From assembly GCA_030167145.1 (NCBI GenBank), contig CP126532.1, forward strand, positions 4,770,001-4,802,000: a stretch of DNA of 32,000 bases, in the 5' to 3' direction. This document shows positions 1 to 20,383 of the stretch, in pieces (within the stretch, counting starts at the first letter, position 1; every line of letters starts with the position of its first letter). This stretch comes from Ktedonobacterales bacterium. GTDB taxonomy: Bacteria; Chloroflexota; Ktedonobacteria; Ktedonobacterales; JADMIN01. Made by a program: the position numbers and the translations under genes. The notes beneath the pieces are model-generated. The model was not told the DNA's origin. It saw only the letters and a list, made by a program, of their open reading frames with translations, and made no database searches.

Positions 1-251
1 GCGACGAGGTGTATGTGACAATAGACATAGATGCGTTCGATCCATCACTGGTTCCTGGGACGGGTACGCCTGAGCCAGGGGGCCTGGGTTGGTATGATGT
101 GATTGATCTGCTAGCGGCGCTCACGGCGCGGAAGCGGGTGGTCGGTTTCGATGTCGTGGAGTTGTCACCGCTTGTCGAAGGGCATGTAAGCCCTGTCGTA
201 GCGGCAAAGCTCGTGTATAAATTGATCGGAATGACGACGGTAGCGCAATAG
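1..251 (+). CDS. Ureohydrolase (agmatinase/arginase family), C-terminal fragment; 5' end lies outside the window
   Basis: The reading frame is open from the window edge (codons D-E precede the GTG at 9). The translation VYVTIDIDAFDPSLVPGTGTPEPGGLGWYDVIDLL...VVGFDVVELSP carries the DxDxxDP and GxD(V/I)VE metal-binding motifs typical of agmatinase/arginase proteins. Stop TAG at 249-251. Confidence 0.7.
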   Translation, partial: DEVYVTIDIDAFDPSLVPGTGTPEPGGLGWYDVIDLLAALTARKRVVGFDVVELSPLVEGHVSPVVAAKLVYKLIGMTTVAQ

Positions 252-1203: not shown

Positions 1204-1361
1204 GGGATGGCTCCCTCGCCGCGCTGCGGTGCATATCGGGCAGCGATCACGACCTGCCGCGCCATCTAATACACGAATGAGCCAGGCAATGTGTTACGAT
1301 GTATCATGCCAGCAATGGCGCTGGTGTGACGAATTACCACCGCGAGAGGCTCAGGCGCCCA

Positions 1362-2801: not shown

Positions 2802-2838
2802 CTGATAAAAATAGCTGATAAGTGAGCAAGGGTGGTCA

Positions 2839-3471
2839 TCAGACAGGCATGGCGAGAACCGCATCAAAGGCATGGCGCAGCGCCCAGGTGAAGGCGTCCA
2901 CATCTTGCGGGCTGGCTGGATAGTCGGAAAATTCGCGCTCGACCGCAGTGCGAAGTTGACCCATGGCTTTGGCGTGGTTGGTGATACCGCGCACAGCCGG
3001 GGCGGCAAGCAGTGAGTGCGCGGTCGCCCAATAAATGGCGGCACAGCCCGCGATGTTGCTGGCGTTGTAGCGAGGAGCGCCCACATTGATCGCCGCCGCG
3101 AGCACGTGATGTATCTCTTCCATGCTATGGACCGCGGCCAGATCGGGAAGGTCCAAGAGGGTGACGGCGCGAAGCTCAAGGGAATCTAAGCGAGAAGGAA
3201 CAATAGCGTCGAGCGGTATGAGGGATTGGAGGTCGGTGAGAAGTAGCGCGGCGCGCTGCCATCCCCGCAGGTTTGGATCGGCGATGAGAATCGTGTGTAG
3301 TGCGAGATGCAGTGTGGTATATACCGATTCTGTGGCATCGAAACGGTTTTCGCTCCGCAAGGTACGGGCATAAGCATCCGCGGCGAGGGCTGCCGCTTTG
3401 ATGGCGGCGAGTGGGTGCAATGAACTAGGAAGTGGCGCTCCTGTGGGTGTGGTCACCTGGCGCATGTCCAT
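2839..3471 (-). CDS. Hypothetical protein (predicted all-alpha, no recognised family)
   Basis: The ORF runs to 3528, but ATG 3471 is preceded by GGGAGGA 5 nt upstream, giving a 210-aa product. It is divergent from the 3711-5219 operon. Confidence 0.6.
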   Translation of the reverse strand: MDMRQVTTPTGAPLPSSLHPLAAIKAAALAADAYARTLRSENRFDATESVYTTLHLALHTILIADPNLRGWQRAALLLTDLQSLIPLDAIVPSRLDSLELRAVTLLDLPDLAAVHSMEEIHHVLAAAINVGAPRYNASNIAGCAAIYWATAHSLLAAPAVRGITNHAKAMGQLRTAVEREFSDYPASPQDVDAFTWALRHAFDAVLAMPV

Positions 3472-3710
3472 GGGAATCCTCCCTATACGGGGCAGACGAG
3501 CAGGAGCGAGCTTTCCATTGCCGTACACGTGACACTGTCCACCCCATGCCTAACTATATACGACATGGAAGGTGATACGCTAGCGGGAACAGGGAGGCGC
3601 GCATTGCACGAAGTGGCGCACTGGCGCGTGAAAGTAGCTACAATCTGTTGGGAGTGTGACCACTGCGACACGATTGCTTCCATGAGATGAGCGCGTTGTA
3701 GAAGGCGGGC

Positions 3711-4463
3711 GTGATGGGCATTGGCTCTATGTCTGAGCAGCAGACGGCGACATCGCGACAGTCCGAGCCGCCATCGCTTCCAATCGGCGCGCGCCGTCTT
3801 ACCGCGCTGGATAGGGCGTTCCTGGGATTGCTGTTGCTTATGGTCGCCGGGCATCTCATGGCGGCGCGACTGGCGGTGGGCTGGTGGAGCGCGGCGGCGC
3901 TTGATGGTGTGGCGGCGATCTATCTGCTGGCAATGTCGGCGCGGCGCGAGTGGCGTGTGCTGCTGGCGCGGCTCTTTCTGCTGGGGCTGGTGGCAGGTGT
4001 ACTGGAACTGGCAACCGATGCGGCGGGAGAGCGTTTCGCCCATTCGTTGGTATATCCCGCCGGTGAGCCATCACTGTGGGTGTCGCCCGTGTATATGCCG
4101 TTTTCGTGGGCCATCGTGCTGACGCAACTGGGCTATCTTGGCTGGCGTCTGCGGGGGCTTGTGCCGCCGCTGCGTTTGTGGGTGGCGATGGCGCTGACTG
4201 GGGTGGTAGGTATGCTGATGGTGCCGTTCTACGAAGAGATGGCGTATTATGCGGGATGGTGGCACTATGCGTCGGTATGGCGGATTGGGCATACGCCGCT
4301 GTATGTGCTGCTGTTCGAGGGGGCCATCGCGGCGATTCTGCCAGTGCTACTTTCGCCACGGCTGACGCAGCGCCCGCTACGGTTCGCGGCGCTGTTGGGA
4401 GCAATCGTCGGCGTCTGGATGCCAGTAGCGGCACTACTTTCGTGGCTGGCAATTGGCCACTAA
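3711..4463 (+). CDS. Hypothetical integral membrane protein (~7 TM); faint resemblance to the DUF422/CruF-type 'carotenoid biosynthesis protein' family
   Basis: Starts at GTG 3711 or ATG 3714, with GAAGG ~9 nt upstream. The sequence is hydrophobic throughout. The patterns LELATDAAGERFAHSLVYP...PVYMPFSWAIV and FYEEMAYYAGWWHY resemble that family only by memory. The stop at 4461-4463 is followed by the SD of the next gene. Confidence 0.7.
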   Translation: MMGIGSMSEQQTATSRQSEPPSLPIGARRLTALDRAFLGLLLLMVAGHLMAARLAVGWWSAAALDGVAAIYLLAMSARREWRVLLARLFLLGLVAGVLELATDAAGERFAHSLVYPAGEPSLWVSPVYMPFSWAIVLTQLGYLGWRLRGLVPPLRLWVAMALTGVVGMLMVPFYEEMAYYAGWWHYASVWRIGHTPLYVLLFEGAIAAILPVLLSPRLTQRPLRFAALLGAIVGVWMPVAALLSWLAIGH

Positions 4464-4475
4464 GGAGGAGGTATC

Positions 4476-5219
4476 GTGAGCGTATCCCTGACAGTGCTCC
4501 ATGTGCGCGATGCTGATCCGTTGATGGTGGAGCAGGCGCTTGAGACGATTTTCGCGAAGGACGGGTGCCCGCAGACGCTACGCCTCGAAGGAACCTATTC
4601 GGCTGTATTGGGCCGTGTAACGGACCCGGACCTGGAGGCAAGGTACCGCTATCTTATCCTGCGCCCGCATGAGGCAGCGTGGACACCAGTGCTGGAGCTA
4701 GGAAACCGGACGGTCAATATAGACGTGGAGCTTTCGCGGGCGCTGAATGGCTGCGCGGTCTTCACGACTTTCGTGTATGGCGATGTGGTATCGGGCTATC
4801 GGATGGCGCGCAACGGGGTTGAGACCGATCAGTATGTGAGCGATCCAACGTATTTTCAATATCTGGAGGATGAGACGAGCACGGATCCGGTAAGAACTAA
4901 CAGCATTGCGGGAGACCAAGGGCATCCCGAACGATTCGCGGACCTGCTACCTAGCGGAACGACGCCAGAGGAGTTCGAGCGGGTGGTGTTGCGGCCAGGA
5001 TGGTGGGAAGAGCATCAGGCTCGCTATGATGAACCTGGCACAACCCACGACACCCGCGAGGACGATGCGGAGGACGAATGGGTAGATGAGGTGGACCGCA
5101 TGCGCTGTATGGCGCTGGCGCTGGAGTTGTGGGGGTCGAGCGACTATCCATTCGCGCAGGAGCCTGAAGACATACCTAATGCGATGGCGGGGCCAGCGAT
5201 TGCGCTGGCATTCGTGTAG
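4476..5219 (+). CDS. Hypothetical acidic cytoplasmic protein, translationally linked to the preceding membrane protein
   Basis: GTG start at 4476, with GGAGGAGG 5 nt upstream and immediately after the upstream stop codon. 247 aa with an Asp/Glu-rich C-terminal half. No family recognised. Confidence 0.7.
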   Translation: MSVSLTVLHVRDADPLMVEQALETIFAKDGCPQTLRLEGTYSAVLGRVTDPDLEARYRYLILRPHEAAWTPVLELGNRTVNIDVELSRALNGCAVFTTFVYGDVVSGYRMARNGVETDQYVSDPTYFQYLEDETSTDPVRTNSIAGDQGHPERFADLLPSGTTPEEFERVVLRPGWWEEHQARYDEPGTTHDTREDDAEDEWVDEVDRMRCMALALELWGSSDYPFAQEPEDIPNAMAGPAIALAFV

Positions 5220-5464
5220 CCGCGCCTGACAGGCGCGTGCGGCGGCACGTGGGCTTGAGGGGCATGACACTCGTGTGCTGGCGCGAAGCTTGCCATGCTG
5301 GTATGCTGTGTCTGCTGTGCTTGCCATGCTTGGGCAGAAATGCGTAGGAAGTACCAGAATAATCTGTGTCCTGTGCTTAGTACGTTACGATGCTAGGGAT
5401 TGTCGCGTTGGTCTGGAACATTCAGGCGTGGTGGCAGGATGAATGGCCCACGCGCGTTGCCTGA

Positions 5465-5494
5465 TTGTACGGGCCTATGTCATAGTGTTATGGT
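5465..5494 (+). promoter_or_regulatory. Candidate sigma70-type promoter (TTGTAC - 18 nt - TGtTATGGT)
   Basis: -35-like TTGTAC at 5465-5470 and an extended -10 TGTTATGGT at 5486-5494. It would give a ~230-nt leader before the GtrA-family gene. Confidence 0.3.
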
Positions 5495-5729
5495 ACACAA
5501 ACGAGGACTTGACGAAGTTGCGCTTGCACAGAGCCGATGCGGGAGAAAATAAGCAATGGGCGGCGTGGAGAGCAACGGGCAGTCATGGGCGCCCGGCCGG
5601 TGGGTCGCCTTTCGGTCTGGGATGATAAGCGCTGGTGATCCGATACAGGTACAGACGCCGGAACCGGCGACGCCTCGCGAAGGAGCGCGCCAGGGCGCGG
5701 TAGAGAGTGCAAACGAGGTTGGAGGATAC

Positions 5730-6335
5730 ATGGCGAATCCAGTGTTGGGAAGTGAGCCTGCGGAACTTGGGGAGCAGGGGATGGCGGGGGATGAAGCGCA
5801 GATGGCGATGGCGCCAGAGCGGAGTTATCATCCGACACGCTGGCCGTTAGTAAATCGTGCGCTGGATCTCGTGGAGTCTATGTTTCCTGGCAAGGCGGGG
5901 TTCGTTCAGCGATTGGTCAGCTATCTCATCGTCGGTGGCGGGGCCGCCGTGGTGAACTTGATTGTTTTCACCATCATGTTCTATCACGTGCCGCTGCCGT
6001 TCAGTGATAAGACCACATTGGGGCACACCGCACACTATCTGACGGCGTTTTTGGTTGGCACTGAGGTCTCGATCTTTGCGAATTTTATTCCGAACGACTA
6101 TCTCACCTTCCGTCACCTGGCAGGACATCAGCGGTCGTGGATCGCTCGCTGCGCACGCTTTCACATTACGTGCATCGCCGGTACGCTGCTAACGCTAGCG
6201 ATTTCGTTTACGCTTCACTTCGCTGGGCTGAATGCGACTGTCGGACAGGCTATCGCGCTGATTGTGGTAACGGCCTTCAACTTCACATTTCATCACTTGT
6301 TCACCTATCGCCATGTGAAGCCCGCAGAGGAATAA
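5730..6335 (+). CDS. GtrA-family membrane protein (polyisoprenol-linked sugar translocation family)
   Basis: ATG 5730 is preceded by GGAGG 4 nt upstream. Four TM helices show typical GtrA patterns (LVSYLIVGGGAAVVNLIVF..., FIPNDYLTFRH, VVTAFNFTFHHLFTYRH). The upstream in-frame extension to 5556 looks non-coding. Confidence 0.8.
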   Translation: MANPVLGSEPAELGEQGMAGDEAQMAMAPERSYHPTRWPLVNRALDLVESMFPGKAGFVQRLVSYLIVGGGAAVVNLIVFTIMFYHVPLPFSDKTTLGHTAHYLTAFLVGTEVSIFANFIPNDYLTFRHLAGHQRSWIARCARFHITCIAGTLLTLAISFTLHFAGLNATVGQAIALIVVTAFNFTFHHLFTYRHVKPAEE

Positions 6336-6399
6336 ATAAGTTGCAGTCAGCAATGCTTGCAGGTGGTTTCTGCTAAGGCGCTCTGTGAGAACACATGCC

Positions 6400-8016
6400 T
6401 CAGTACGGGTTGTTGCTGTCAGCGCAAGTGACTGGCAAACGGCCTTGTGCCTGCGCGCGACCGAAGATGACGTTCACCGCTGCCGCGAGAGCAGGCTCCG
6501 AATATTCATAGGTGGCGAGGAAGGTTCCTATTTCTGGCAAGACACATGCATCGTATGGATCGCAGACGGCGATGCCGATAGTGGGTCGGCCCACACCTGC
6601 GATACGGCGCATGATGCCGAGTTGCTCTGGGCGCCGGTGCGCGTTCAGCGTCACGAGCAGCACCGCGCGAGCAGCGCCAGCGATACGCAGCGTCGCATCT
6701 ATCTGCTCGGTTGTGGGGTGGGGAGCGAGGGTGACGAGGCTGGTATTCGGGTGTTCGTGACGTATCGCATCTAGCAGCGACGAAGGCTCAAAGGCAATGT
6801 CAACCGCGTCGTTGATCGCATCCGGGGGTTGGACGATGATGGCCAGCGGTTCATCAGCGCTGATATGCAGTGGAAGGAGCGAGGCTTTATCTCGGACCAG
6901 GGTGGTTGACGCCGCATACGCCTGGTCGCGGAGCGCTGCGTGTGGCCGACTTCCTACGATAGTGAGCGCGTCAGTTGTGGGCAAGTTGTCCCAGGCGAGA
7001 TACCGCTGTTTCAGGCGCATTATCCGCTCAGCCGCCTGGCGAAAAGCGTCTAGCGTCAGTTCGCCTGATGCGACCGCTGCTCGCACGGCGGCAATGCTGG
7101 CGCGCTGTACCTGAATTCGATGCGAGACAAGTACGATATCTGTGCCCGCGCGCAGTGCCAGCACGGACGCTCGCGGAGCGCCGATGGTCGTGGCAATGGC
7201 GTCCATCTCGAAGCAATCGGAGATGGCCACGCCAGAGAATCCGAGGCGCTCGCGCAAGAGTCCCTGTATGATGTCGGGTGAGATGGTCGCGGGCACGGGG
7301 TCGCCAGGTATGAGGGCGGGCAATGCGACGTGGCCGATCATAACACAGTCAGCGCCAGCTTCTATCCCCATCTGGAAAGGAACCAGTTCCAGTGCGTCCA
7401 GGCGTTCGCGTGACGCAGAGATGACAGGCAGCGCGCGGTGTGAATCTGTCGCGGTATCCCCATGACCGGGGAAGTGCTTCAGCGTGGCGATGATGCCTGC
7501 CGCATGGTAGCCGCGCAGCGCTGCTGCGCCCAGACGTGCGACCATCCGCGGGTTTTCGCCGAAGGAACGGATGCCAATGACAGGATTGGCGGGATTGTTG
7601 TTGACATCCACCACAGGAGCCAGATTCATGTTGACGCCGAGAGCGCGCAACTCCTCACCAGTGGCTTGCGCTACGTCGTAGGTGAGTTGTTCTGAGTCAA
7701 TCGCGCCCAACGCCATGTTGCCCGGGAAAATGGTGCTGCCCGACCCAAGCCGCCGGACCAGCCCATTTTCTTGATCGGTGGCGATGAGTAGTGGATAGGG
7801 ATGTCCCGCCTCTTTGGCGGCCTGCTGCAAATCATGTGTGAGCGCGAGCAGTTGATGCGGACTTTCGATATTGCGCGAGAACAGAATCACGCCGCCGATG
7901 TGATGATTTTGGATTAGGTCTATCATCTCTGGAGAGGGCGTTGTGCCATGAAAGCCAACCATGAACGTTTGGCCAATGAGGTGATCGAGTGGCGTTTGCG
8001 CGCTGAAGATGGTCAT
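6400..8016 (-). CDS. Glycoside hydrolase family 3 beta-N-acetylhexosaminidase (NagZ-like, two-domain form)
   Basis: Motifs: GQTFMVGFHG, IGGVILFSRNI, LIATDQENGLVRRL, GVNMNLAPVVDV and the NagZ-type KHFPGHGDTATDSH. ATG 8016 has AGAGAGGA upstream. The track's extension to 8280 is a different gene remnant read in another frame. Confidence 0.85.
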   Translation of the reverse strand: MTIFSAQTPLDHLIGQTFMVGFHGTTPSPEMIDLIQNHHIGGVILFSRNIESPHQLLALTHDLQQAAKEAGHPYPLLIATDQENGLVRRLGSGSTIFPGNMALGAIDSEQLTYDVAQATGEELRALGVNMNLAPVVDVNNNPANPVIGIRSFGENPRMVARLGAAALRGYHAAGIIATLKHFPGHGDTATDSHRALPVISASRERLDALELVPFQMGIEAGADCVMIGHVALPALIPGDPVPATISPDIIQGLLRERLGFSGVAISDCFEMDAIATTIGAPRASVLALRAGTDIVLVSHRIQVQRASIAAVRAAVASGELTLDAFRQAAERIMRLKQRYLAWDNLPTTDALTIVGSRPHAALRDQAYAASTTLVRDKASLLPLHISADEPLAIIVQPPDAINDAVDIAFEPSSLLDAIRHEHPNTSLVTLAPHPTTEQIDATLRIAGAARAVLLVTLNAHRRPEQLGIMRRIAGVGRPTIGIAVCDPYDACVLPEIGTFLATYEYSEPALAAAVNVIFGRAQAQGRLPVTCADSNNPY

Positions 8017-8017
8017 T

Positions 8018-8341
8018 CTAGTTCCTCTCTCGATGCGTGGCGGCACGGGCATGGGCAACGGCCGCCGCAGGGTCAGAAACGATGCTGGCTTGCCCTGTTG
8101 ACCGGACGCGCCGGATGCGGCGCAGCACAGCCGCACGAAATGCCGCTTCATGCACAAGCGGGCCGCCACCCAGCGCCAGGGGCACATCATGGGTGAGACC
8201 CAGTTGATCGCAAACGGTGACTGCGGCTTGCGCGAGCTCGGTAGCTGCGCGGCGCACCCTACCGCGTGCGATGGAGTCACCAGCGTATGCGGCGAGCAGT
8301 GTGAGCGATGCGATGAGCAGCCACCAGCTACGACGCCGGAA
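8018..8341 (-). pseudogene. 3' remnant (about 105 codons) of a BadF/BadG/BcrA/BcrD-type ATPase (N-acetylglucosamine-kinase-like) gene
   Basis: The open frame from the stop at 8342-8344 reads ...AAYAGDSIARGRVRRAATELAQAAVTVCDQLGLTHDVPLALGGGPLVHEAAFRAAVLRRI...SIVSDPAAAVAHA. This is the pattern of the C-terminal third of BadF-type sugar kinases. There is no ATG, and only 47 nt separate it from the rsmI stop, so about 200 N-terminal codons are missing. Its TAG lies 1 nt before the GH3 ATG. Confidence 0.5.
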
Positions 8342-8388
8342 CTATAGCGTTAGGCCATCACAACATGTCACATCATGGGCGCTTTGCG

Positions 8389-9261
8389 TCATTCCTCGTC
8401 ATGTTCGGCTTTTTCTTCAGAGAGGTGGAGCGCAAGGGCATAGGCTTCACGGCGGGTTAATCCGAGTTCTCTGGCGACCCGCGCGGCGGCTTCGCGGGTG
8501 GCAAGTCCGTGGCTAAGGAGGTCACCCAGACGATCGCGGGCAAGGTCTTCGACGGAATGGGACTCGTCGGGAGCGGTTGTGGGTGTGACGAGTGCGCCGG
8601 AGATGACCAGGGTGAACTCACCCCGCGGGGTGAGTTCACCGCTGGCGAAGCGCGCACGGATGGCGGCGAGCGAGCCTCGGAGCCAGTCTTCGTGCAGCTT
8701 GGTTAGCTCACGGGCGATGGCGATTTCACGGTCGCCGAGCATGGCAAGCAGATCGTCGAGGCAGCTCAGCAGGCGATGTGGCGCTTCGTAGAGGATAAGC
8801 GTATAGGGCGACATGCGCACCTGTTCGAGCAAGGTGCGGCGATCGGTAGATTTGCGTGGGAGGAAACCCAGGAAGGTAAAATTGTCGGTGGGTAGACCCG
8901 ATGCGATGAGCGCGGCAATGGCGGCGGTGGGTCCGGGAATCGGGATCACTGGATAGCCAGCAGCGATAGCGGCGCGCACGAGATCCTGGCCAGGATCGGA
9001 GACGGCGGGAGTGCCAGCATCGGAGACTAGCGCGACATCGCCGGTTGCGAGCGCGGATAGAATGATGTCACGCTGCGCCTGAGGGCTATGCTCGTGGTAG
9101 CTGATGGTGGACGTGGAGATGTTGAAGTGGGTGAGTAGTTTGCGGGTGTGGCGAGTGTCCTCGGCGGCGATGAGCGGAACCTCGCGCAGGATGCGGAGCG
9201 CGCGCAGGGTGATGTCTTCGAGATTCCCTATAGGGGTGGCAACAAGGTAGAGCGTACCCAT
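8389..9261 (-). CDS. rsmI: 16S rRNA (cytidine1402-2'-O)-methyltransferase
   Basis: The N-terminus GTLYLVATPIGNLEDITLRALRILREVPLIAAEDTRHTRKLL is the RsmI signature, in a tetrapyrrole-methylase fold. ATG 9261 lies 4 nt after the dtd stop. Confidence 0.9.
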   Translation of the reverse strand: MGTLYLVATPIGNLEDITLRALRILREVPLIAAEDTRHTRKLLTHFNISTSTISYHEHSPQAQRDIILSALATGDVALVSDAGTPAVSDPGQDLVRAAIAAGYPVIPIPGPTAAIAALIASGLPTDNFTFLGFLPRKSTDRRTLLEQVRMSPYTLILYEAPHRLLSCLDDLLAMLGDREIAIARELTKLHEDWLRGSLAAIRARFASGELTPRGEFTLVISGALVTPTTAPDESHSVEDLARDRLGDLLSHGLATREAAARVARELGLTRREAYALALHLSEEKAEHDEE

Positions 9262-9265
9262 GTGC

Positions 9266-9721
9266 TCACGACCACATGGCGGTGTCGAGCCAGATAGTGA
9301 CTGGCCCATCGTTGACCAACTCTATTTGCATATCCGCGCCGAAGCGGCCACCTTGCACGGGCACACCGAGGGCGCGCAGTTCCTCCATCACTTGCTCGAT
9401 TAGCGGCGCGGCAACATCTGGGGGCGCGGCACGAGTGAAACCCGGACGGCGGCCACGACGCACATCGGCGTAGAGGGTGAATTGCGAGACGACCAGCGCC
9501 CCGCCGCCAATGTCGCGTAGCGAGCGGTTGATTTTGCCCTGGCCATCGGCGAAGATACGCAATCCAGCAATCTTATCGGCCATCAATTGCGCCTGGGCCT
9601 CGCTATCGTCCAGGCCAACGCCGAGCAATACCACGAGACCCGGTGCGGGATCCAGCTTCCCGATAGTCTCGCCATGTACGATGACGCGCCCGCTTGTCGC
9701 GCGTTGCAAGGCGGCGCGCAT
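9266..9721 (-). CDS. dtd: D-aminoacyl-tRNA deacylase
   Basis: 151 aa with the SQFTLYAD and NDGPVT(I/L) motifs. ATG at 9721. Confidence 0.9.
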   Translation of the reverse strand: MRAALQRATSGRVIVHGETIGKLDPAPGLVVLLGVGLDDSEAQAQLMADKIAGLRIFADGQGKINRSLRDIGGGALVVSQFTLYADVRRGRRPGFTRAAPPDVAAPLIEQVMEELRALGVPVQGGRFGADMQIELVNDGPVTIWLDTAMWS

Positions 9722-9727
9722 AGGTGG

Positions 9728-10054
9728 TTACTCTGCTTTCGCCGCCGTCGTGGCGGCAGGCTTAGTGGCTTCGGATGCGGCGCTGCTGCTGTCACCCGTG
9801 GCTGCGCTGGCGGTGGCTGCGGCGCCGGCATCCGTGGACGAGGCGGATTCCGGCGCGGGCTTGGCGGTGGATGCGGCACTTTTGTTGTCCGTGCTGTAGA
9901 AACCACCGCCTTTAAAGACGAGGCCAACCGGATAGATAATACGATGCACTGGCGCGCCACATGTGGGGCAGACCGCAATTGGCTCATCAGTGATCTTCTG
10001 CCAGGCTTCGAAGCGGGCGCCACAAGATTCGCACTTATAATCATACATCGGCAT
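9728..10054 (-). CDS. FmdB-family zinc-ribbon protein with an Ala/Ser/Thr-rich tail
   Basis: MPMYDYKCESCGARFE...AVCPTCGAPV (CxxC...CxxC). AGGAGG lies 12 nt upstream of ATG 10054. Confidence 0.8.
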   Translation of the reverse strand: MPMYDYKCESCGARFEAWQKITDEPIAVCPTCGAPVHRIIYPVGLVFKGGGFYSTDNKSAASTAKPAPESASSTDAGAAATASAATGDSSSAASEATKPAATTAAKAE

Positions 10055-10174
10055 AGAGTTTTCGGAACCTCCTGAACATAGCATAGCACGCGGGCGGGGA
10101 CGGGCAATGTGTGCCGGCTACACATGGGCCATCGCATGACTACCCACGCGGGTGAGCGCGCACCCTATGACATA

Positions 10175-10203
10175 ATTATAGCATTTGGGCGCAGAGCATG
10201 AAC
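10175..10203 (-). promoter_or_regulatory. Candidate promoter of the fmdB-dtd-rsmI-GH3 operon (extended -10 TGCTATAAT)
   Basis: The minus strand reads GTTCAT - 17 nt - TATAAT, with TGc immediately upstream of the -10 box. It lies ~110 nt upstream of the fmdB-family start. Confidence 0.4.
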
Positions 10204-10222
10204 ATACTCCTGACATCTTGGC

Positions 10223-10732
10223 TCAGACTCCGCTGGACGGCTGCGTTTCCTGCTTCAGGCGCACCAATTCGCTAGCGAGGAGATCGGTCCGCGGCCAGTC
10301 CATCTGGTTGGCCGCAACATAAGAATAGCGGATGATGCCAGACGGATCAATGATGAACGCGCTGGGATGCGCGATGCGAAAAGCGTCATAGCTGAGCGCG
10401 TTGTAGACATCATACGCCTGCATGACGGAGCGATGAGTATCGCTGAGCAGTGGAAACGGCAACGGATTACGCGCGAGAAACGCGGCGGTATCATCGGTAT
10501 CCTGCGCGACGATGCCAATCAGTGCCGCGCCCTGGCTGGTGAGTTTAGCGTGTTCGGAGCGCAACTGCGCCCAATGCCTGCGGCAGTTGGGTCACTGGGT
10601 GCCCCGAAAGAAGAAAAGGACGACCCACTGGCCGCGCAACGTGCTCAGGCGCACCGATAAGCCATCGGAAGCAGGGAGGGTGAAGTCTGGCGCGGGGGTT
10701 CCGGCTGCAAGGCCCTTCTTGGAGTTTGGCAT
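10223..10732 (-). CDS. Peroxiredoxin-like (AhpC/TSA-redoxin family) thiol:disulfide oxidoreductase with an in-frame TGA (10592-10594) at the first Cys of the CxxC motif; candidate selenoprotein, otherwise a nonsense pseudogene
   Basis: Track ORFs 10592-10786 and 10223-10564 share one frame. The joined translation is MPNSKKGLAAGTPAPDFTLPASDGLSVRLSTLRGQWVVLFFFRGTQ-[TGA]-PNCRRHWAQLRSEHAKLTSQGAALIGIVAQD...PFPLLSD...PSAFIIDPSGIIRY. The total of 169 codons is typical for the family. ATG 10732 has GGAGA/GAGG upstream. Confidence 0.6.
10562..10589 (-). other. SECIS-like stem-loop immediately 3' of the in-frame TGA
   Basis: mRNA sense: UGA-CC-CAACUGC-c-GC[AGGCAUUGG]GC-GCAGUUG. That is 7 perfect bp, a bulged C, 2 more bp and a 9-nt apical loop containing GG and U. 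Confidence 0.45.
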
Positions 10733-10777
10733 GCCTCGTATATCTCCATCTAACACTAAAGGCAAACAGAGCGCAGC

Positions 10778-10811
10778 GTACATCATCTAGAGAGGGTACA
10801 TCATCCAGAGA
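10778..10811. repeat. Tandem direct repeat (16 nt x2, period 18) in a divergent promoter region; candidate operator
   Basis: gtacatcatctagaga (10778-10793) and gtacatcatccagaga (10796-10811), with one mismatch. They lie 46-79 nt upstream of the peroxiredoxin-like ATG. Confidence 0.7.
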
Positions 10812-10888
10812 TAGTATGGTAGCTGCGGGCACTGACGCAAATCGCAGGGCTTGCCCGCTCATCCGCCAGGAATGCTCGATGTGCGCGA

Positions 10889-10918
10889 TTGTTCGTCCTT
10901 GAACCTTGTATCTATATT
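10889..10918 (+). promoter_or_regulatory. Candidate promoter for the GNAT gene (TTGTTC - 18 nt - TATATT)
   Basis: The hexamers sit at 10889-10894 and 10913-10918, ~60 nt upstream of ATG 10980. Confidence 0.3.
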
Positions 10919-10979
10919 GTTCGTAGAGCAACAGGCAGATATTGCATGGGTGGGTCGCGAACAGGTCGGGGAGGGCGTC

Positions 10980-11867
10980 ATGTCTACAGGGAGCGAACGG
11001 GGAGTCGTGGGTAGGTCCGCGCTGAGCGCAGCAGAGGTGACGGCGATATCCGCGCTGCGCGACCGATGCAACCGTGTTGATGGGCTGGATCTGAAGCTCG
11101 AACTGGAAGCGCGGCGCGATGACGCGGATCCTGGCCAGGTGAGTGCGTTTCTCTATTATGAAGATGCTGTGCTTGTGGGTTGCTGCACGCTCGATGGCCG
11201 CACGGAGGTGGAGATCTGTGGCATGGTGGACCCAGAGCAGCGGCATCGCGGAATCGGTCGAGCGCTGCTGGCCGCTGCGAAGGCTGAGTGTATGCGACGC
11301 GGAACACGACGCATCATGCTCATCTGCGAAGATGCTTCTGCGGGAGGCAAAGCGTTCGTGGCCGCGCATGGCGGGCAGCCTCTCTTTGCGGAACATCGTA
11401 TGGAACTGGAGACGCTTTCGCCGCAGGCAGCGGGACGCACCAACATGGATCCCGTGGAGATCCATGTGGCGCAACGCAGCGATCTGGAGGCGATGGCGCG
11501 CACGCAGGCCGCCATCTTTGCGGATTCAGTGGATTACGTACGATGGAGTATTGAGCGGGACATGGATGACCCGAATACGATCTTCTATCTGGCACTGGCA
11601 CAGGGCTTGAGGCCAATCAGTAGCCTCAAGGTGATTTTCGCACCACCACGCGCGTTTATCTATGCGTTCGGAGTTGTGCCGCAAGAGCGCGGTCGTGGAT
11701 ACGGTGGCCTGATGCTCACGCGAGTAATCGAACTGCTTCAGGCCGCTGGTTGGCGGAAGGTGGCATTGGAGGTGGACGTGGACAATGCTCCAGCGCTGGC
11801 GCTCTACACCGCGCGAGGATTCCACATCACAACGACATATGGGTATTACGAGCTAGCAGAGCCATAA
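10980..11867 (+). CDS. GNAT-family N-acetyltransferase with two tandem GNAT domains (MshD-like architecture)
   Basis: Two acetyl-CoA-binding Q/RxxGxG/A motifs (QRHRGIGRALL and QERGRGYGGLM) and the C-terminal NAPALALYTARGF. ATG 10980 has GGGGAGGG 5 nt upstream. The track start at 10851 is unlikely. Confidence 0.8.
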   Translation: MSTGSERGVVGRSALSAAEVTAISALRDRCNRVDGLDLKLELEARRDDADPGQVSAFLYYEDAVLVGCCTLDGRTEVEICGMVDPEQRHRGIGRALLAAAKAECMRRGTRRIMLICEDASAGGKAFVAAHGGQPLFAEHRMELETLSPQAAGRTNMDPVEIHVAQRSDLEAMARTQAAIFADSVDYVRWSIERDMDDPNTIFYLALAQGLRPISSLKVIFAPPRAFIYAFGVVPQERGRGYGGLMLTRVIELLQAAGWRKVALEVDVDNAPALALYTARGFHITTTYGYYELAEP

Positions 11868-11890
11868 AGAAAAATTTATGGCTAACCATA

Positions 11891-11919
11891 TTGCGTAGTT
11901 AGAGAAGGAATGCTATCAT
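11891..11919 (+). promoter_or_regulatory. Candidate secG promoter (TTGCGT - 17 nt - TATCAT with TGc extended -10)
   Basis: TTGCGT at 11891-11896 and TGCTATCAT at 11911-11919, ~75 nt upstream of the secG start. Confidence 0.4.
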
Positions 11920-11993
11920 AACGTAAAGGGCTGACGCAAAGCGCCCTGGCCGCCAGGAGTAGCGCAGCATCTCAGCGAAAAAGGGGTTGGATT

Positions 11994-12239
11994 GTGACGT
12001 TTCTTTCAGCCTATCGCCAGTACTTCGAGATCGTCCAGATTATCGTGGCGATTGCGTTGACGGCTTCGATTCTGCTCCAGGTGCGTGGGGCGGGGCTTGG
12101 CAGCGTCTTCGGTGGCACGGGCACGGTGTTCAAGACCAGGCGCGGCATTGACAAGTTGCTCTTTCGTTTCACGATTGTCTTCAGCATCTTGTTTGCCGTT
12201 GTCTGTGTTGTCACGGCGACGATCCCGACGCCGAAGTAG
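11994..12239 (+). CDS. secG: Preprotein translocase subunit SecG
   Basis: 81 aa with two TM helices flanking the Gly-rich loop LLQVRGAGLGSVFGGTG. GTG start with AAGGGG upstream. Confidence 0.8.
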   Translation: MTFLSAYRQYFEIVQIIVAIALTASILLQVRGAGLGSVFGGTGTVFKTRRGIDKLLFRFTIVFSILFAVVCVVTATIPTPK

Positions 12240-12344
12240 GCGCCTGCGCTCAAGCGTGGATATGGCTCTTTTTGGCGGCACTGGCGCTGCCTTGGCAGCA
12301 CTGGTGAGTGGTCTGATATCAGCGGTCAATAAGCCGAGCAACGA

Positions 12345-12379
12345 GGCCCGACTTCCGCGGAAGTTGGGCCTTCTTTGTG
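12345..12379 (+). terminator. Intrinsic terminator between the convergent secG and ferredoxin genes
   Basis: GGCCCGACTTCC-GC-GGAAGTTGGGCC, a 12-bp inverted repeat with one G-T pair whose 2-nt centre means the innermost pairs must open to form the loop, followed by TTCTTTGTG. An A-rich run on the other side could allow bidirectional use. Confidence 0.5.
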
Positions 12380-12440
12380 CGCGCCGGAAGTGTAGCCAGC
12401 TACATCTGTTTTATGTGTAGCGGCTCTGGCGGTATCGCGG

Positions 12441-12686
12441 TTAACGCTTGCGGAAATAGTCTGCATTGAGTTGGATGTAGCTTTTCCATTCTGCTGGTAC
12501 CGCGCCTTCGTCGAAAATTGCCGTCACGGGGCAGGCCGGCTCGCAAGCGCCGCAGTCAATGCACTCATCCGGGTCTATGTAATACATGTCGTCTTCTTCG
12601 AGGGCGTGGATGCAGTCCACTGGGCAGACATCCACGCAGGATGCGTCTTTGACGCCGACGCAGGGCTGAGTAATGACATATGTCAT
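12441..12686 (-). CDS. Ferredoxin, 7Fe ([3Fe-4S][4Fe-4S]) type
   Basis: MTYVITQPCVGVKDASCVDVCPVDCIH...CIDCGACEPACPV, the classic FdxA-type cysteine spacing. AGAGAGGA lies upstream of ATG 12686. Confidence 0.85.
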   Translation of the reverse strand: MTYVITQPCVGVKDASCVDVCPVDCIHALEEDDMYYIDPDECIDCGACEPACPVTAIFDEGAVPAEWKSYIQLNADYFRKR

Positions 12687-12967
12687 CAACAAAAGTCCTC
12701 TCTACACGCGCCAGGAATGTCGCAAGCGCATCCGTAGCATAGCGCCAGGAAGGCGAATCGTCAAAGCGACAAAGCGCTTCGCGGGTACTTCGCTGGTCAG
12801 GTACGCAGCGCGTGAATATTGGCAGATTGGGCTTCGCGTTTCGCTCCATTGCTACTACGGAGATATGCAGGCTCAGCGGAGGCGGGCAATGCTCGCCATT
12901 CCGCGCGAACACCTTCGCCCCACCTGGAGCGAAGCCCGTCAGCGAGGCGGGAAGGAGACAAGGTATT

Positions 12968-14029
12968 ATGGCCATCCGTGAGGCTCGCGAGGCTCGCGAG
13001 GCAAAGGCGACCCTGGCTGGATTGAGTCGCGAACAGCTCTTTGACATGCACTACAAGATGGTGCTGCTACGCCGGTTCGAGGAGAAAGCCGCTGAGGAGT
13101 ACACCCTCGGCAAGATTGGTGGGTTCCTGCATCTTTACATCGGTCAGGAAGCCAGTGGTGTTGGTACGTTCTCGGCGTTGCAGCCAGATGATTATGTGCT
13201 GAGCGCCTACCGCGAGCATGGCTATGCCATCCTCAAGGGGCTTGACCCCAAAGCGGTGATGGCGGAACTGTTTGGCAAGGCGACGGGAGGCAGTAAGGGC
13301 AAGGGCGGCTCCATGCATATGTGGAGCAACGAGCATCACTTGCTTGGCGGGCAGGCTATTGTCGGCGGACAACTGGTGATGGCAGCGGGCCTGGGCATCG
13401 CCATTCAGTATCAGAATGAGAAGCGGATCGCATTGGCGCTCTTCGGCGACGGTGCGGTAGATGAGGGCGCATTCCATGAGGCGCTGAATCTCGCATCCGT
13501 CTGGAAACTGCCGGTGGTCTTCCTCTGCGAGAACAATCAATATTCGATGGGCATGGCGGTTACGAAGGCCTGGGCGGTACCCTCGCTGGAGCCGCGTGCG
13601 GCTGGTTACGGCATGCCATATCTCAAAGTGGACGGCATGGATACGCTGGCTGTGCGCGAGGCGATGCTCGAAGCGCGCGAACGCGCGGTGAGCGGCGGCG
13701 GGCCGACACTGATCGAATCGCTGACGTATCGTTTCCGTGGCCACTCGATGGCTGATCCAGCATACTATCGAACGCGTGAAGAAGAAAAGCTCTGGAAAAC
13801 CACACGCGATCCCATCGCGCTCTTCGAGGATAAACTGAAAGAGGCGGGCCTGATGGCCGACCGCGACATCAGCGCCACGAACGACAGGGTGGACGCCGAA
13901 GTGGCTGAATATGCGCGGTTCGCAAATGAAAGCCCCGACCCGACGATTGACGATCTGTATGCGGATGTAACGGTTGACGGGCGTGGCGCTATCGCCTGGC
14001 GCACAAAGCCCAGCACCCCACGCGAATAA
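12968..14029 (+). CDS. pdhA: 2-oxoacid (pyruvate-type) dehydrogenase E1 component, alpha subunit (TPP-binding)
   Basis: MVLLRRFEEKAAEEYTLGKIGGFLHLYIGQEA, the TPP motif GDGAVDEGAFHEALN, and YRFRGHSMADP. ATG 12968 has GGAAGGAGA upstream. The track extension to 12812 looks non-coding. Substrate (pyruvate, acetoin or branched-chain) cannot be fixed from the sequence alone. Confidence 0.85.
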   Translation: MAIREAREAREAKATLAGLSREQLFDMHYKMVLLRRFEEKAAEEYTLGKIGGFLHLYIGQEASGVGTFSALQPDDYVLSAYREHGYAILKGLDPKAVMAELFGKATGGSKGKGGSMHMWSNEHHLLGGQAIVGGQLVMAAGLGIAIQYQNEKRIALALFGDGAVDEGAFHEALNLASVWKLPVVFLCENNQYSMGMAVTKAWAVPSLEPRAAGYGMPYLKVDGMDTLAVREAMLEARERAVSGGGPTLIESLTYRFRGHSMADPAYYRTREEEKLWKTTRDPIALFEDKLKEAGLMADRDISATNDRVDAEVAEYARFANESPDPTIDDLYADVTVDGRGAIAWRTKPSTPRE

Positions 14030-14077
14030 CGCCGTTTGGCGTGTGTCAAAGCGGAATAACCACCGAGGACCAGCTTC

Positions 14078-15130
14078 ATGGCAACAGCCAAAGAACCTGA
14101 GAGAAACGAGAAGAAGACGATGCGGACGATAACGTACCGCGAGGCGCTGCGCGAGGCGATTGCCGAGGAGATGCGGCGTGACGAGCGCATTTACATCCTG
14201 GGTGAGGATATTGCCGGGTACGGCGGCACCTATGGTGTGACCAAGGGGCTAATCGAAGAATTTGGCGAGAAGCGCGTGAAAGATACGCCGCTCGCCGAAG
14301 AGGTTATCGCGGGCGCGGCGATTGGCTCCGCGCTTGGCGGCCTTCGGCCCATTGCTGAACTGATGACCATGAACTTCAGTTTGCTGGCTAGCGATCAGAT
14401 CATCAACAGCCTGGCGAAGTTCCGCTATATGTTCGGCGGCCAGGCCAAGCTGCCGGTGGTGATCCGCATGCCCGCGGGCGGAGGCGCACAGCGCGGGGCG
14501 CAGCACTCGCAGATGCTCGAAAGTCTCTACGCGCACATCCCTGGCCTGAAGCTCGTGATGCCGGCCACGCCATACGACGCCAAGGGCATGCTCAAAGCCA
14601 GCCTGCGGCAGGATGACCCGATTCTCTTCATCGAGCATGAGTTGCTCTATAACGTCAAGGGCGAGGTGCCGGATCTCGGTGTACACTACACCGTGCCGCT
14701 AGATCAAGGTATTGTGCGCCGCGAGGGGAAAGACGTCACCATCGTGACCTTCTCACGCATGGTGCATATCTGCTCGCAAGCGGCGGAGGATCTGGCGAAG
14801 GAAGGCATCGAGGCTGAGGTGATTGATCTGCGCGCGATTCGCCCGATTGACCTGGATCTGGTGCTCGATTCGGTGCGGAAAACCAACCGTGTGGTAATAG
14901 CCGAGGAAGGCTGGAAGTATTACGGCACGGGGCAGGGCATTGCCGCATTGATCTACGAATACGCCTTCGACTGGCTCGACGCGCCGATTGCCCACGTTAC
15001 CGGCAAAGATGTGCCTATGCCCTACTCCAAGGTACTTGAGCGTGCGGCGTTGCCGGGCAAGGCTGAGGTGATCGCCGCTGTGAAGGCGTTGGTTCCCGCG
15101 CGGGCGACCGCCGGAGTTGGTGCGCGATAG
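14078..15130 (+). CDS. pdhB: 2-oxoacid (pyruvate-type) dehydrogenase E1 component, beta subunit
   Basis: ITYREALREAIAEEMRRDERIYILGEDI..., DTPLAEEVIAG and PVVIRMPAGGG, a typical transketolase-like E1beta. Confidence 0.9.
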   Translation: MATAKEPERNEKKTMRTITYREALREAIAEEMRRDERIYILGEDIAGYGGTYGVTKGLIEEFGEKRVKDTPLAEEVIAGAAIGSALGGLRPIAELMTMNFSLLASDQIINSLAKFRYMFGGQAKLPVVIRMPAGGGAQRGAQHSQMLESLYAHIPGLKLVMPATPYDAKGMLKASLRQDDPILFIEHELLYNVKGEVPDLGVHYTVPLDQGIVRREGKDVTIVTFSRMVHICSQAAEDLAKEGIEAEVIDLRAIRPIDLDLVLDSVRKTNRVVIAEEGWKYYGTGQGIAALIYEYAFDWLDAPIAHVTGKDVPMPYSKVLERAALPGKAEVIAAVKALVPARATAGVGAR

Positions 15131-15144
15131 GGAGCGATGAAGCG

Positions 15145-16482
15145 ATGCATACCGTGGTGATGCCCAAGCTGGGCGACACGATGGAAGAGGGCAAGATCCT
15201 CACATGGCTCAAAAAAGAGGGCGATACGGTCCAGAAAGGCGACGCGCTGGCGGAGATTGAAACCGAGAAGGTGAATATCGAAGTCGAGGCGTTCTCGGCA
15301 GGCATTCTGCGCAAGATTCTCGCACCCGCTGGCACGACCATACCAGTTGGCGACCCCATCGCGCTGACCGGCACAGCGGATGAGCCGCTGCCGGCCACGG
15401 CGACCGCTCAAGCCTCCGCGACTGCCGCGCAGACAACGCCTGCGGCTGGTGCGGGCAATCCTGCTACACTGACGGAGCAATCTGGACAGGCCAACGTAGC
15501 TCCGGAGCAGGTGCTGCCCGCTGTGGCCCAGCCACAACCCGTGGCTGCGCAGGTGATGGCGGGCACGAATGGCTATGTGGCCTCCGCGCCGACACAGACG
15601 AATGCCCATGGCGCGCGGATCTTCATCAGCCCGATTGCCCGGCGCATCGCCGCTGAGCACGACCTGGACATCAGCGCCATCGCAGGCACCGGCCCAGGCG
15701 GACGCATCCAGCGCGAAGATGTCGAGGCCGCACTGGTGCGGCAGCAGCAGGTACCCGCACAACCCGTTGCGCCTGTTGCGGCGGGGCAGGCGGTTGAGGC
15801 GGTGCCGCTGAGCGCAATGCGCAAGACTATCGCTAAGCGTTTGCAGCAGAGCATGCAGACCGCGCCGCACTTCTACGTGACGATGGCGATTGACACCACC
15901 AAGCTTGGCGGCTTCCGCGAGACGATCAACGAGTACGCCGCGATGCAACCGCAGCCGATAAAGGTCAGTGTGAACGATCTGATCGTGAAAGCAGCGGCGA
16001 CGGCGCTGGAGCATATGCCAGCGGTCAACGTGTCATTCGATGGCGAGCGGCTGCTCTACAAGCGGCAGATCAACATCGGCGTGGCCGTTGCGCTCGACCA
16101 GGGCTTGATCGTCCCTGTGATCCGCGACGCCAACAAGCGTGGCGTGCTCGACATCGCCCGCGAAACGCGCAGGCTGGCGGATGCCGCGCGCACAGGCAAG
16201 CTGAAGCCGGAAGAGTTTCAGGGCGGTACCTTCTCGGTGAGCAACCTGGGCATGTTTGGTGTGGACGAGTTCACGGCGATCATCAATCCACCGGAGTCGT
16301 GCATCCTGGCGGTCGGCGCGATTGTGCCGACGCCGGTGGTCCACGAGGGACAGGTGGTAGTGCGCGACATCATGAAAGTGACGCTCTCGGTGGATCACCG
16401 TGCGCTGGATGGCGCGACCGCCGCGCGATTCCTCCAAGAGCTTCAGCGCTTGCTGGAGCAGCCAGTGGGGATGTTGCTGTAG
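15145..16482 (+). CDS. pdhC: Dihydrolipoamide acyltransferase (E2) with lipoyl, E1/E3-binding and catalytic domains
   Basis: Lipoyl motif EIETEKVNIEVEA, Ala/Pro-rich linkers, the PSBD segment ISPIARRIAAEHDLDISAIAGTGPGGRI, and the catalytic DHRALDG. Confidence 0.9.
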   Translation: MHTVVMPKLGDTMEEGKILTWLKKEGDTVQKGDALAEIETEKVNIEVEAFSAGILRKILAPAGTTIPVGDPIALTGTADEPLPATATAQASATAAQTTPAAGAGNPATLTEQSGQANVAPEQVLPAVAQPQPVAAQVMAGTNGYVASAPTQTNAHGARIFISPIARRIAAEHDLDISAIAGTGPGGRIQREDVEAALVRQQQVPAQPVAPVAAGQAVEAVPLSAMRKTIAKRLQQSMQTAPHFYVTMAIDTTKLGGFRETINEYAAMQPQPIKVSVNDLIVKAAATALEHMPAVNVSFDGERLLYKRQINIGVAVALDQGLIVPVIRDANKRGVLDIARETRRLADAARTGKLKPEEFQGGTFSVSNLGMFGVDEFTAIINPPESCILAVGAIVPTPVVHEGQVVVRDIMKVTLSVDHRALDGATAARFLQELQRLLEQPVGMLL

Positions 16483-16505
16483 GCGGAAGTACCTGGTAGC
16501 GATTA

Positions 16506-16553
16506 ATGACGATAGCTCACGCCGATTCGGCGCGGGCTATCGTCATATTTTGA
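16506..16553 (+). terminator. Intrinsic terminator after the dehydrogenase operon
   Basis: ATGACGATAGC...GCTATCGTCAT is an 11-bp stem enclosing an inner CGCCG-ATT-CGGCG hairpin, followed by ATTTTGA. Confidence 0.55.
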
Positions 16554-16730
16554 GATTAGCCATCGCGGTTGACCTGCGTTACTATCCTACCTGTTGCCGC
16601 CCAAAAAGCCTATGGCGGTTATCCATCCGGCGTGCTACGATTTTCTCGCAGGTCTGTTGTCGGCCATTCTGGCAGGGACATGTCGGGTCGTATGTAGTGC
16701 GTTCGCTGAAAAGCGGAGGATGGTGACGCA

Positions 16731-20210: not shown

Positions 20211-20284
20211 GCAATCCATGCCGCTCAACCCAACTCATGTAGTAGTCGTATAGACTAGGAAATAGTGCCTGGCGGCAAGAGTTC

Positions 20285-20293
20285 TGCTATACT
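20285..20293 (+). promoter_or_regulatory. Candidate extended -10 element (TGCTATACT) upstream of the zinc-ribbon/PrsW gene
   Basis: TGcTATACT lies ~90 nt upstream of ATG 20384. There is no good -35 box. A GGGCCT...AGGCCC hairpin lies in the predicted leader. Confidence 0.3.
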
Positions 20294-20383
20294 CCATGCA
20301 CACTACGCCGCTGAAACGGGCCTCCACATGGGTAGGCCCACGGAACGGCACGATGACAGCGTTGGTAGCGAGAGGGCTAGGGC

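Follow-up and report, generated by a model that had tools for sequence, protein, structure and literature searches.

The question raised by this locus is how a TGA codon standing in frame within a peroxiredoxin-like gene is read. The gene lies on the minus strand of a 32,000-nucleotide stretch of DNA from a Ktedonobacterales bacterium (contig CP126532.1, positions 4,770,001 to 4,802,000; hereafter the window, in whose own numbering all positions are given unless another contig is named), and an earlier inspection of its letters, which we call the sequence-only reading, had proposed it as a candidate selenoprotein with a UxxC motif, U being selenocysteine (Sec). The proposal is borne out by what is seen at the locus, namely a conserved TGA, a pairing of Sec with Cys among homologues, coding constraint up- and downstream of the TGA, constraint at the RNA level together with a hairpin resembling a selenocysteine insertion sequence (SECIS), and the pattern of active-site residues. 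We hold it to be very probable that the gene at 10732..10223 encodes a Sec-containing, peroxiredoxin (Prx)-like thiol:disulfide oxidoreductase in which UGA specifies Sec, and that annotation has mistakenly split it. The features on which the first part of the argument depends are as follows.

10732..10223, minus strand: complete Prx-like gene, 169 codons plus a TGA stop (10225..10223), with an AhpC/TSA fold and the redox motif U47-P-N-C50.
10594..10592, minus strand: in-frame TGA, the predicted selenocysteine codon U47, conserved among orthologues and aligned with the first Cys of CxxC.
10732..10595, minus strand: N-terminal part, 46 codons, a separate small open reading frame (ORF) or ignored in gene calls.
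10564..10223, minus strand: 113-aa ORF opened by TTG 10564, the public 'peroxiredoxin' annotation (protein P0001), without the redox motif.
10747..10743, minus strand: Shine-Dalgarno-like GGAGA, read in the sequence 10 nt upstream of the ATG at 10732, its function presumed.

The single minus-strand frame 10786..10223 contains exactly one internal stop, the TGA at 10594..10592, in the context ...LRGQWVVLFFFRGTQ-TGA-PNCRRHWAQLRSEH... (in short form, FFFRGTQ-TGA-PNCRR). The sequence-only reading had described two ORFs of one frame, parted by the TGA and nine sense codons, and reading the frame through gives the same result, with PNCRRHWAQ (10591..10565) lying between the TGA and TTG 10564. Its joined length of 169 codons is likewise reproduced when codons are counted from the ATG at 10732, as 46 codons, the Sec codon and a further 122. 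This ATG (10732..10730), rather than the ATG at 10786, is the true start because the N-terminus MPN(P/S)KKGL is kept in those orthologues whose sequence reaches the 5' end; ATG 10786, which opens the frame in the ORF list, sits upstream of this conserved start. With Cys written in place of the stop, the joined protein matches the Pfam family AhpC-TSA with E = 1.4e-34 (119 bits against a cut-off of 26) and Redoxin with E = 3e-23. A 309-aa ORF in another frame (10545..11474, minus strand) also overlaps the locus and appears spurious.

In public records the gene is seen in pieces. Positions 223..20564 of the window are identical to part of the JGI metagenome contig Ga0494333_323 (5,069,600 bp), where annotation has two ORFs in place of this gene, one of 128 aa and one of 113 aa, the second being the 'peroxiredoxin' P0001, which is 100% identical to the C-terminal ORF. 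Both JGI and NCBI records call the N-terminal part as a separate AhpC-TSA fragment of 46-128 aa, so that the earlier expectation that gene callers would split this gene describes the public record as it stands. The 128-aa version of the N-terminal piece (L007:9634-10020) starts well upstream of the conserved start.

We searched 5.8 billion proteins and retrieved the relatives' DNA from GTDB genomes, JGI metagenomes, ENA, NCBI and Logan assemblies, which gave 14 distinct Ktedonobacterales-type orthologues with 58-88% amino acid identity. The 22 best protein relatives (58-100% identity) are all fragments of 93-123 aa that begin just after the TGA position, and full-length relatives are met only at about 40% identity. 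Because these full-length homologues read FFFRGTWCPxCR in the corresponding block, the TGA falls in the column of the leading Cys of CxxC, as had been proposed from the letters, and in agreement with this a Cys-form relative (L023) has TGC at the Sec codon. TGA stands at the same codon in all 14 orthologues, with the N-terminal half conserved in frame, and the surrounding motif reads ...RG(T/V/L)x-TGA-(P/G/A)NC(R/H)RHWAQLRSE..., with UxNC in every one of them; the residue before the TGA is Gln in the window protein and Trp in 5 of the 14. The same in-frame TGA recurs in Terriglobia (L005, L020, L021 and L022; RGTW-TGA-PN(C/S)R) and in a Gemmatimonadaceae metagenome-assembled genome (MAG; L006, identical to L013; RGMW-TGA-MNCR), and in Terriglobia the Sec forms (57-82% identity to L005) occur beside Cys forms (39-62%, FLRGTWCPNC(K/R)K). 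The sequence-only reading had held that TGC or TGT in close relatives would speak against Sec. The opposite was seen, as no TGC or TGT was found at the Sec codon among the relatives of at least 58% identity that could be read, all of which carry TGA. The Sec form is fixed in the Ktedonobacterales-type clade, in which no Cys orthologue was found.

Coding constraint in these 14 orthologues is equal on the two sides of the TGA. The 46 codons upstream have a mean synonymous diversity (pS) of 0.64 and a mean nonsynonymous diversity (pN) of 0.26, giving a pN/pS of 0.41 and a median ratio of nonsynonymous to synonymous substitution rates (dN/dS) of 0.22, and the 100 codons downstream have a mean pS of 0.61, a mean pN of 0.23, a pN/pS of 0.37 and a median dN/dS of 0.23. 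Because the constraint is the same on each side, both halves must be translated. The nine-codon spacer between the TGA and the TTG, which encodes xNC(R/H)RHWAQ, is also in frame and has zero indels in 19 Sec-form sequences. A single stop in an otherwise intact ORF does have the look of a fresh nonsense mutation or of a base-call error. However, the constraint, the frame and the lack of indels over such divergence therefore rule out a pseudogene or a sequencing error, the TGA being present in distinct orthologues down to 58% identity, in independent JGI, ENA, NCBI and Logan assemblies and in three phyla, with no Cys-codon orthologue at or above that identity. We regard it as highly improbable that the gene is a recent nonsense pseudogene or that the stop at 10592-10594 arose through faulty sequencing or assembly.

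Some of the Terriglobia sequences show changes of their own. Two of them (L020:1330-1830 and L021:1300-1839) read RGTW-TGA-PN-S, with Ser encoded by TCA or AGC, so that the motif is UxxS; the resolving Cys is lost in these variants and the hairpin described below is intact. A UxxS 'peroxiredoxin-like family protein' is listed separately in PMC13188914 Table 1. The N-terminal half of L005 (2932-3070) has an extra in-frame stop and that of L021 (1200-1480) a frameshift; both lie on very long contigs, and these lesions could be either long-read assembly errors or real decay.

The in-frame TGA could in principle mean that TGA codes for Trp or Gly in this organism, a reading for which the codon itself is all that can be cited. 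However, TGA is the ordinary terminator of 8 of the 25 confident genes in the window and is therefore not reassigned in this organism. The long genes of the window (DnaE, 1159 aa; methylmalonyl-CoA mutase; the pyruvate dehydrogenase-type E1/E2 genes) have no in-frame TGA, and the codon at issue aligns with Cys rather than with Trp or Gly. An altered code is so improbable as to be negligible.

A further possibility is that the gene is truly split, with the TGA terminating and the 113-aa piece being made from TTG 10564, with or without the 46-aa peptide, and with an RNA element downstream of the TGA serving re-initiation. The two pieces in all the public gene calls would fit such an arrangement, as would the fact that in many relatives a TTG or ATG could serve as start only a few codons past the TGA. 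We nevertheless consider it improbable. TTG 10564 has no Shine-Dalgarno sequence before it and sits inside the loop of the hairpin, which itself matches the SelB-type SECIS model, and the fragment starts called in relatives differ from one another (see below). The C-terminal piece alone would be without the whole redox motif and the first β-α unit of the fold. The spacer is free of indels and retains the second active-site Cys as TGC in all 14 orthologues. In addition, the one-base change that would turn the stop into a Cys codon has never been taken in these 14 lineages. The 113-aa 'peroxiredoxin' call is an artefact of cutting the gene at the TGA.

A Sec codon would be expected to be followed by a signal in the RNA, and the gene carries one directly downstream of the TGA.

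10574..10554, minus strand: predicted SECIS hairpin, UUGGGCGC-AGUU-GCGC(U)CCGA, 8 bp with one bulged U.

Only one stretch of the gene, immediately following the TGA, forms a minimum of synonymous diversity. There pS falls to 0.086 (codons 53-58, HWAQLR), the gene-wide median being 0.607, and whether the gene is scanned in blocks of 6, 10 or 13 codons, the six lowest-pS blocks all begin at codons 48-55. Among the codons after the TGA, GCG (Ala), CAG and TTG (Leu) are invariant in 14 of 14 orthologues and CGC (Arg) is kept in 13 of 14; elsewhere in the gene, the same amino acids are encoded by four or five different codons. This region coincides with the hairpin, which spans nt 18-38 past the UGA, carries AGUU as its apical loop (10566..10563), and folds with -10.9 kcal/mol in 61% of the ensemble. 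Its pairing survives the substitutions that do occur, with CGC->CGU giving a G-U pair in L012 and C39->U a G-U pair in L003 and L010. The Terriglobia genes have a hairpin at the same distance from the UGA, CAACUGACUC-AGUUG-GAGUCAG(A)UUG, with the same loop and another stem sequence, and within that group A25->G yields a G-U pair in L020. The Gemmatimonadaceae gene has the hairpin GCAGCUC-GGU-GAGCUGC, 21 nt after the UGA. When the sequences are placed in a gapless alignment, 87.5% of cells are paired, a value reached by 0 of 500 shuffles and compared with 28-54% for slid controls, and the pair at alignment columns 8-24 is compensatory, being GC in 8, UA in 4 and GU in 2 sequences. A comparable hairpin is absent in the one Cys-form gene examined, L023 (-4.0 kcal/mol).

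As a computational prediction, the hairpin of the window falls within the constraints of the published model of bacterial SECIS elements (bSECIS; PMC13188914 Fig. 2), which, with the minimum free energy abbreviated as MFE, compare as follows.

Apical loop: published 3-9 nt; window hairpin 4 nt.
Upper stem: published 4-16 bp; window hairpin 4 bp, plus 4 bp below the bulge.
Loop G: published within the first two positions, usually then G or U; window hairpin A-G-U-U.
UGA-to-loop distance: published 16-37 nt; window hairpin 25 nt.
MFE: published <= -7.5 kcal/mol; window hairpin -10.9 kcal/mol.

With the fdhF-type and consensus bSECIS (Zhang & Gladyshev 2005, via PMC13188914 Fig. 2) the window element thus shares the position of the hairpin inside the ORF, the loop G followed by U, the one-nucleotide bulge in the stem, a spacing within 16-37 nt and an MFE at or below -7.5 kcal/mol. 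It has its GU at nt 30-31 counted from the U of the UGA and its bulge on the 3' side, and binding by SelB is predicted. In the fdhF SECIS, by comparison, the GU lies at nt 23-24. Two other structures were considered and set aside. The MFE fold of the 71 nt from the UGA onwards contains a hairpin directly after the UGA, CCCAA.UGCC...GGCAUUGGG, which was rejected as a SECIS because it is neither significant (z = 0.10) nor conserved in L003, L004 and L010. The structure in the Terriglobia register fits the Ktedonobacterales sequences poorly, with 64.7% of cells paired.

Several observations weigh against a Sec reading of this codon and have to be set beside those above. Taken alone, the hairpin is only moderately unusual, with z = -2.0 and 8 of 200 shuffles folding as well. 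It is without variation inside the Ktedonobacterales clade, so that the covariation rests on four Terriglobia sequences, and in these the upper stem is offset by one nucleotide; what both clades have in common is the loop and the three lowest pairs. No Rfam family matches in the window at the gathering threshold, and with E up to 10 on 10400-10700 Rfam returns only a meaningless match to fiv_FSE (16.9 bits against a cut-off of 53). A long-range stem of 7 bp can also be drawn within 10594-10560 (minus strand), pairing CAACUGC (nt 6-12, the Asn-Cys codons) with GCAGUUG (nt 27-33, the Gln-Leu codons). Beyond the RNA, ARAGORN finds no tRNA, and hence no tRNA-Sec, in the window, no selA, selB or selD gene is present within its 32 kb, and our reading of the literature found no published report of selenoproteins in Ktedonobacteria, only a mention of a Cys-containing AhpC.

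The long-range stem is possible in Ktedonobacterales and Terriglobia alike and is mutually exclusive with the proposed hairpin. It leaves the synonymous constraint at nt 34-41 unexplained, and in the UxxS variants L020 and L021 it falls to 4-5 bp with the local hairpin intact. It is a possible alternative, for example as an alternative conformer. Its Terriglobia counterpart shows one apparently compensatory change, C-G in L005 and A-U in L022.

The lack of Sec machinery within the 32-kb window and of a literature report for Ktedonobacteria would also suit recoding or readthrough of the UGA by a mechanism that does not use selenocysteine, for instance by a near-cognate tRNA for Trp or Cys, stimulated by the hairpin in a lineage without Sec machinery. 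The base after the UGA is C in 8 of the 14 orthologues, and UGA-C is a weak termination context. We nevertheless judge this mechanism unlikely. The codon aligns specifically with a redox Cys, and a one-base change to TGC or TGT, which would supply Cys directly, has been made in none of the 14 orthologues; the nine-codon spacer is in frame, indel-free and Cys-containing; and the hairpin fits the SelB-type SECIS model, down to an apical-loop GU at the spacing expected of it. Terriglobia have the same arrangement of TGA and hairpin, and both Chloroflexi and Acidobacteria are phyla with documented Sec decoding and selenoproteins (PMC1794560 Table 2). The stronger form of the same idea, that the carrier lineage is devoid of canonical selABCD and that a TGA kept throughout the clade is decoded by some other hairpin-stimulated recoding or readthrough, is to our minds just as unlikely.

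We infer from the sequence that insertion of Sec depends on SelB and that selenium is incorporated, and a mechanism can be proposed on this basis. The in-ORF hairpin, with its AGUU loop, would recruit the SelB·GTP·Sec-tRNA(Sec) complex to the ribosome, so that Sec would be inserted at the UGA and termination avoided; without selenium or the Sec machinery, only the 46-residue peptide would be made. In the full-length protein, a selenolate at the N-terminus of the active-site helix would attack an oxidised substrate, which could be a disulfide, a sulfenic acid or possibly a peroxide. A selenenylsulfide would then form between Sec47 and Cys50, the latter acting as the resolving residue, and would be re-reduced by a thioredoxin-type system.

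The sequence-only reading had placed the Sec at the catalytic Cys position of a peroxiredoxin, and here the alignments give a different picture. Two further positions matter for it.

10583..10585, minus strand: TGC codon of Cys50, second residue of UxxC and predicted resolving Cys, TGC in 14 of 14 orthologues.
10364..10366, minus strand: CCC codon of Pro123 in the invariant AHPSAF(I/L)ID block, predicted to be the active-site cis-proline of a thioredoxin fold.

Of the solved structures, PrxQ/BCP proteins from archaea and bacteria match the protein best (2ywn, 2cx3 and 5enu; E = 5e-17 to 3e-16), followed by ResA (E = 2e-13). Against the PrxQ/BCP structures 2ywn and 2cx3, Sec47 aligns with the Thr of PxxxTxxC and Cys50 with the peroxidatic Cys. 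Three of the four residues of the canonical Prx signature are missing, Pro being replaced by Arg43, Thr by Sec47 and the catalytic Arg by Pro123, with only Cys50 kept. What stands of the earlier claim is therefore that Sec occupies the first position of a thioredoxin-type CxxC; what does not stand is its equation with the catalytic Cys of peroxiredoxins, since Sec aligns with the Prx Thr and the peroxidatic Cys corresponds to C50.

Another parallel is offered by the thioredoxin-type proteins. BLASTP against E. coli CcmG aligns GTQ-U-PNC-R with ATW-C-PTC-R, placing Cys50 on CcmG Cys83, and AHPSAFIIDPSGIIRY with GAPETFLIDGNGIIRY. Pro123 is invariant in Sec and Cys forms. Its counterpart is the Arg in 2ywn and, in E. 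coli CcmG, the Pro of GAPETFLID, which we take to be the active-site cis-proline of that protein. Among 46 full-length relatives from a representative library of 1.84 billion proteins CxxC is present in 24 and Pro at position 123 in 42, and the single canonical Prx in that set (PGDNTPVCT) has Arg at position 123. Reading the N-terminus, MPNSKKGLAAGTPAPDF, reveals no signal peptide, membrane anchor or hydrophobic segment, and the protein is therefore probably cytoplasmic. Given that three of the four Prx signature residues are replaced and that the pattern of CxxC and cis-Pro is CcmG-like, it looks, as far as sequence can tell, like a cytoplasmic thioredoxin-type thiol:disulfide oxidoreductase on an AhpC/TSA scaffold, for which a peroxidase activity through the selenolate is possible.

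The comparison with known systems follows from these assignments. Prx-like thiol:disulfide oxidoreductases had been named as a known selenoprotein family, which the literature confirms: 'Prx-like thiol:disulfide oxidoreductase' (PF00578, UxxC/UxxU) is listed as a high-confidence predicted prokaryotic selenoprotein family and credited to Kryukov & Gladyshev 2004 (PMC13188914 Table 1), and 'Prx-like 1, pfam00578, UxxC' accounts for 225 Sec sequences in the GOS survey (PMC2398784 Table 2). Because reviews define the family by the PF00578 domain and the UxxC motif, the window gene is a member of it. It shares with that family the domain, the UxxC motif with CxxC in Cys homologues, and a SECIS-type hairpin inside the ORF with G in a small apical loop, and for the published family (representative WP_010940744.1, Geobacter), as for the window protein, the function is only predicted. 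It differs in its clade, which is Ktedonobacterales-type Chloroflexota; hence what is new is a member from this clade, the family itself having been known since 2004.

Other redox families share part of this description. Canonical PrxQ/BCP proteins have the same fold family and a Cys at the Cys50 position, but the window protein lacks both PxxxTxxC and the Arg. In the TxxU Prx selenoproteins Sec is at the peroxidatic position, whereas the Sec of the window protein is three residues upstream of that position. The TlpA/ResA/CcmG (DsbE) proteins are matched in the active site, UPNC and AHPSAFIID corresponding to CPTC and GAPETFLID in the WCxxC and cis-Pro loop pattern of that group; however, they are extracytoplasmic, whereas the window protein has no signal peptide or anchor and its scores for those families are far below the cut-offs (NCBIfam ResA, 52.7 bits against 170; DsbE, 23.5 against 123). 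No cytochrome-maturation genes lie around the locus. The NCBIfam PrxQ models are likewise far below their cut-offs (63.9 against 260 and 62 against 140), and the scores are also below the cut-offs for the selenoprotein models SelL_rel_redox NF040769 (57.6 against 120), PrxU NF040737 (45 against 270) and WAxxUGC_long NF041054 (23.1 against 300). Because no NCBIfam model is passed, the standard NCBI rules would not rescue this gene.

The same splitting appears to extend through much of the subfamily. We compared the 149 nearest 50%-identity cluster representatives (P0153-P0301), of which 92 are short, and in 88 of these 92 the N-terminus maps downstream of the CxxC (88/149, ~59%). The fragment starts pile up at query residues 51, 54, 55 and 57, which lie 4-10 residues beyond the Sec column, and the starting residue is M, L or V; such a spread would be expected if the caller takes whichever start codon happens to come first and not a conserved site of initiation. 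The start pattern suggests that the short representatives are Sec forms cut at the UGA. Four other short proteins begin before the motif, three of which keep Cys at the Sec column, the fourth (P0217) being unaligned at its N-terminus. One long match, P0156 (2081 aa, E = 7.6e-21), was discarded as spurious, as it consists of 14 repeated weak matches to a repetitive Ser/Thr/Asn-rich protein of surface type.

The window has a G+C content of 60%, and the closest genomic relatives are Ktedonobacterales MAGs, which makes a Ktedonobacterales-type member of the Chloroflexota the probable carrier. Downstream on the same strand lie genes for a Zn-ribbon/FmdB protein, a D-Tyr-tRNA deacylase (dtd) and RsmI, and upstream there is a divergent acetyltransferase gene; the order Zn-ribbon/dtd/rsmI is syntenic in the orthologue locus L016, and Zn-ribbon and dtd are also next to the gene in L019. 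Farther off are SecG, a ferredoxin, 2-oxoacid dehydrogenase E1/E2 and DnaE, and the rest of the window carries genes for PrsW, an MFS transporter, an LprG-like protein, a WYL regulator, ABC-2, a thiolase and methylmalonyl-CoA mutase. The neighbouring genes are housekeeping genes. The adjoining downstream gene (9728-10084, minus strand) encodes a Zn-ribbon/FmdB-family protein with CxxC...CxxC and a long Ala/Ser/Thr-rich tail and is a Cys form; the FmdB family includes UxxU selenoprotein members (PMC13188914 Table 1). A promoter and terminator scan of 10050-10950 gave chance-level matches only.

Together these data make the locus a clear case of systematic annotation error, in which every readable public record splits the gene into two 'peroxiredoxin' fragments, and the start positions of the short proteins suggest that most public entries of the subfamily are truncated selenoprotein calls. 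It is also a clean example of an RNA signal within a coding region that is visible directly as a local collapse of synonymous variation. A milder proposal than a lineage without selABCD, and a more likely one, is that the gene belongs to a distinct, mostly Sec-containing and unmodelled subfamily (RGxxUxNC plus AHPSAF) that annotation pipelines have missed; if that is true, the occurrence of the AGUU loop in different phyla would suggest that gene and recoding signal have been transferred horizontally as one unit. The implication for the organisms is that a group of Ktedonobacterales-type soil Chloroflexota, a class for which no published report of selenocysteine use was found, uses selenocysteine. 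The understanding of how selenoproteins work is left unchanged, and the value of the finding lies mainly in annotation and in extending the use of Sec to a Ktedonobacterales-type lineage.

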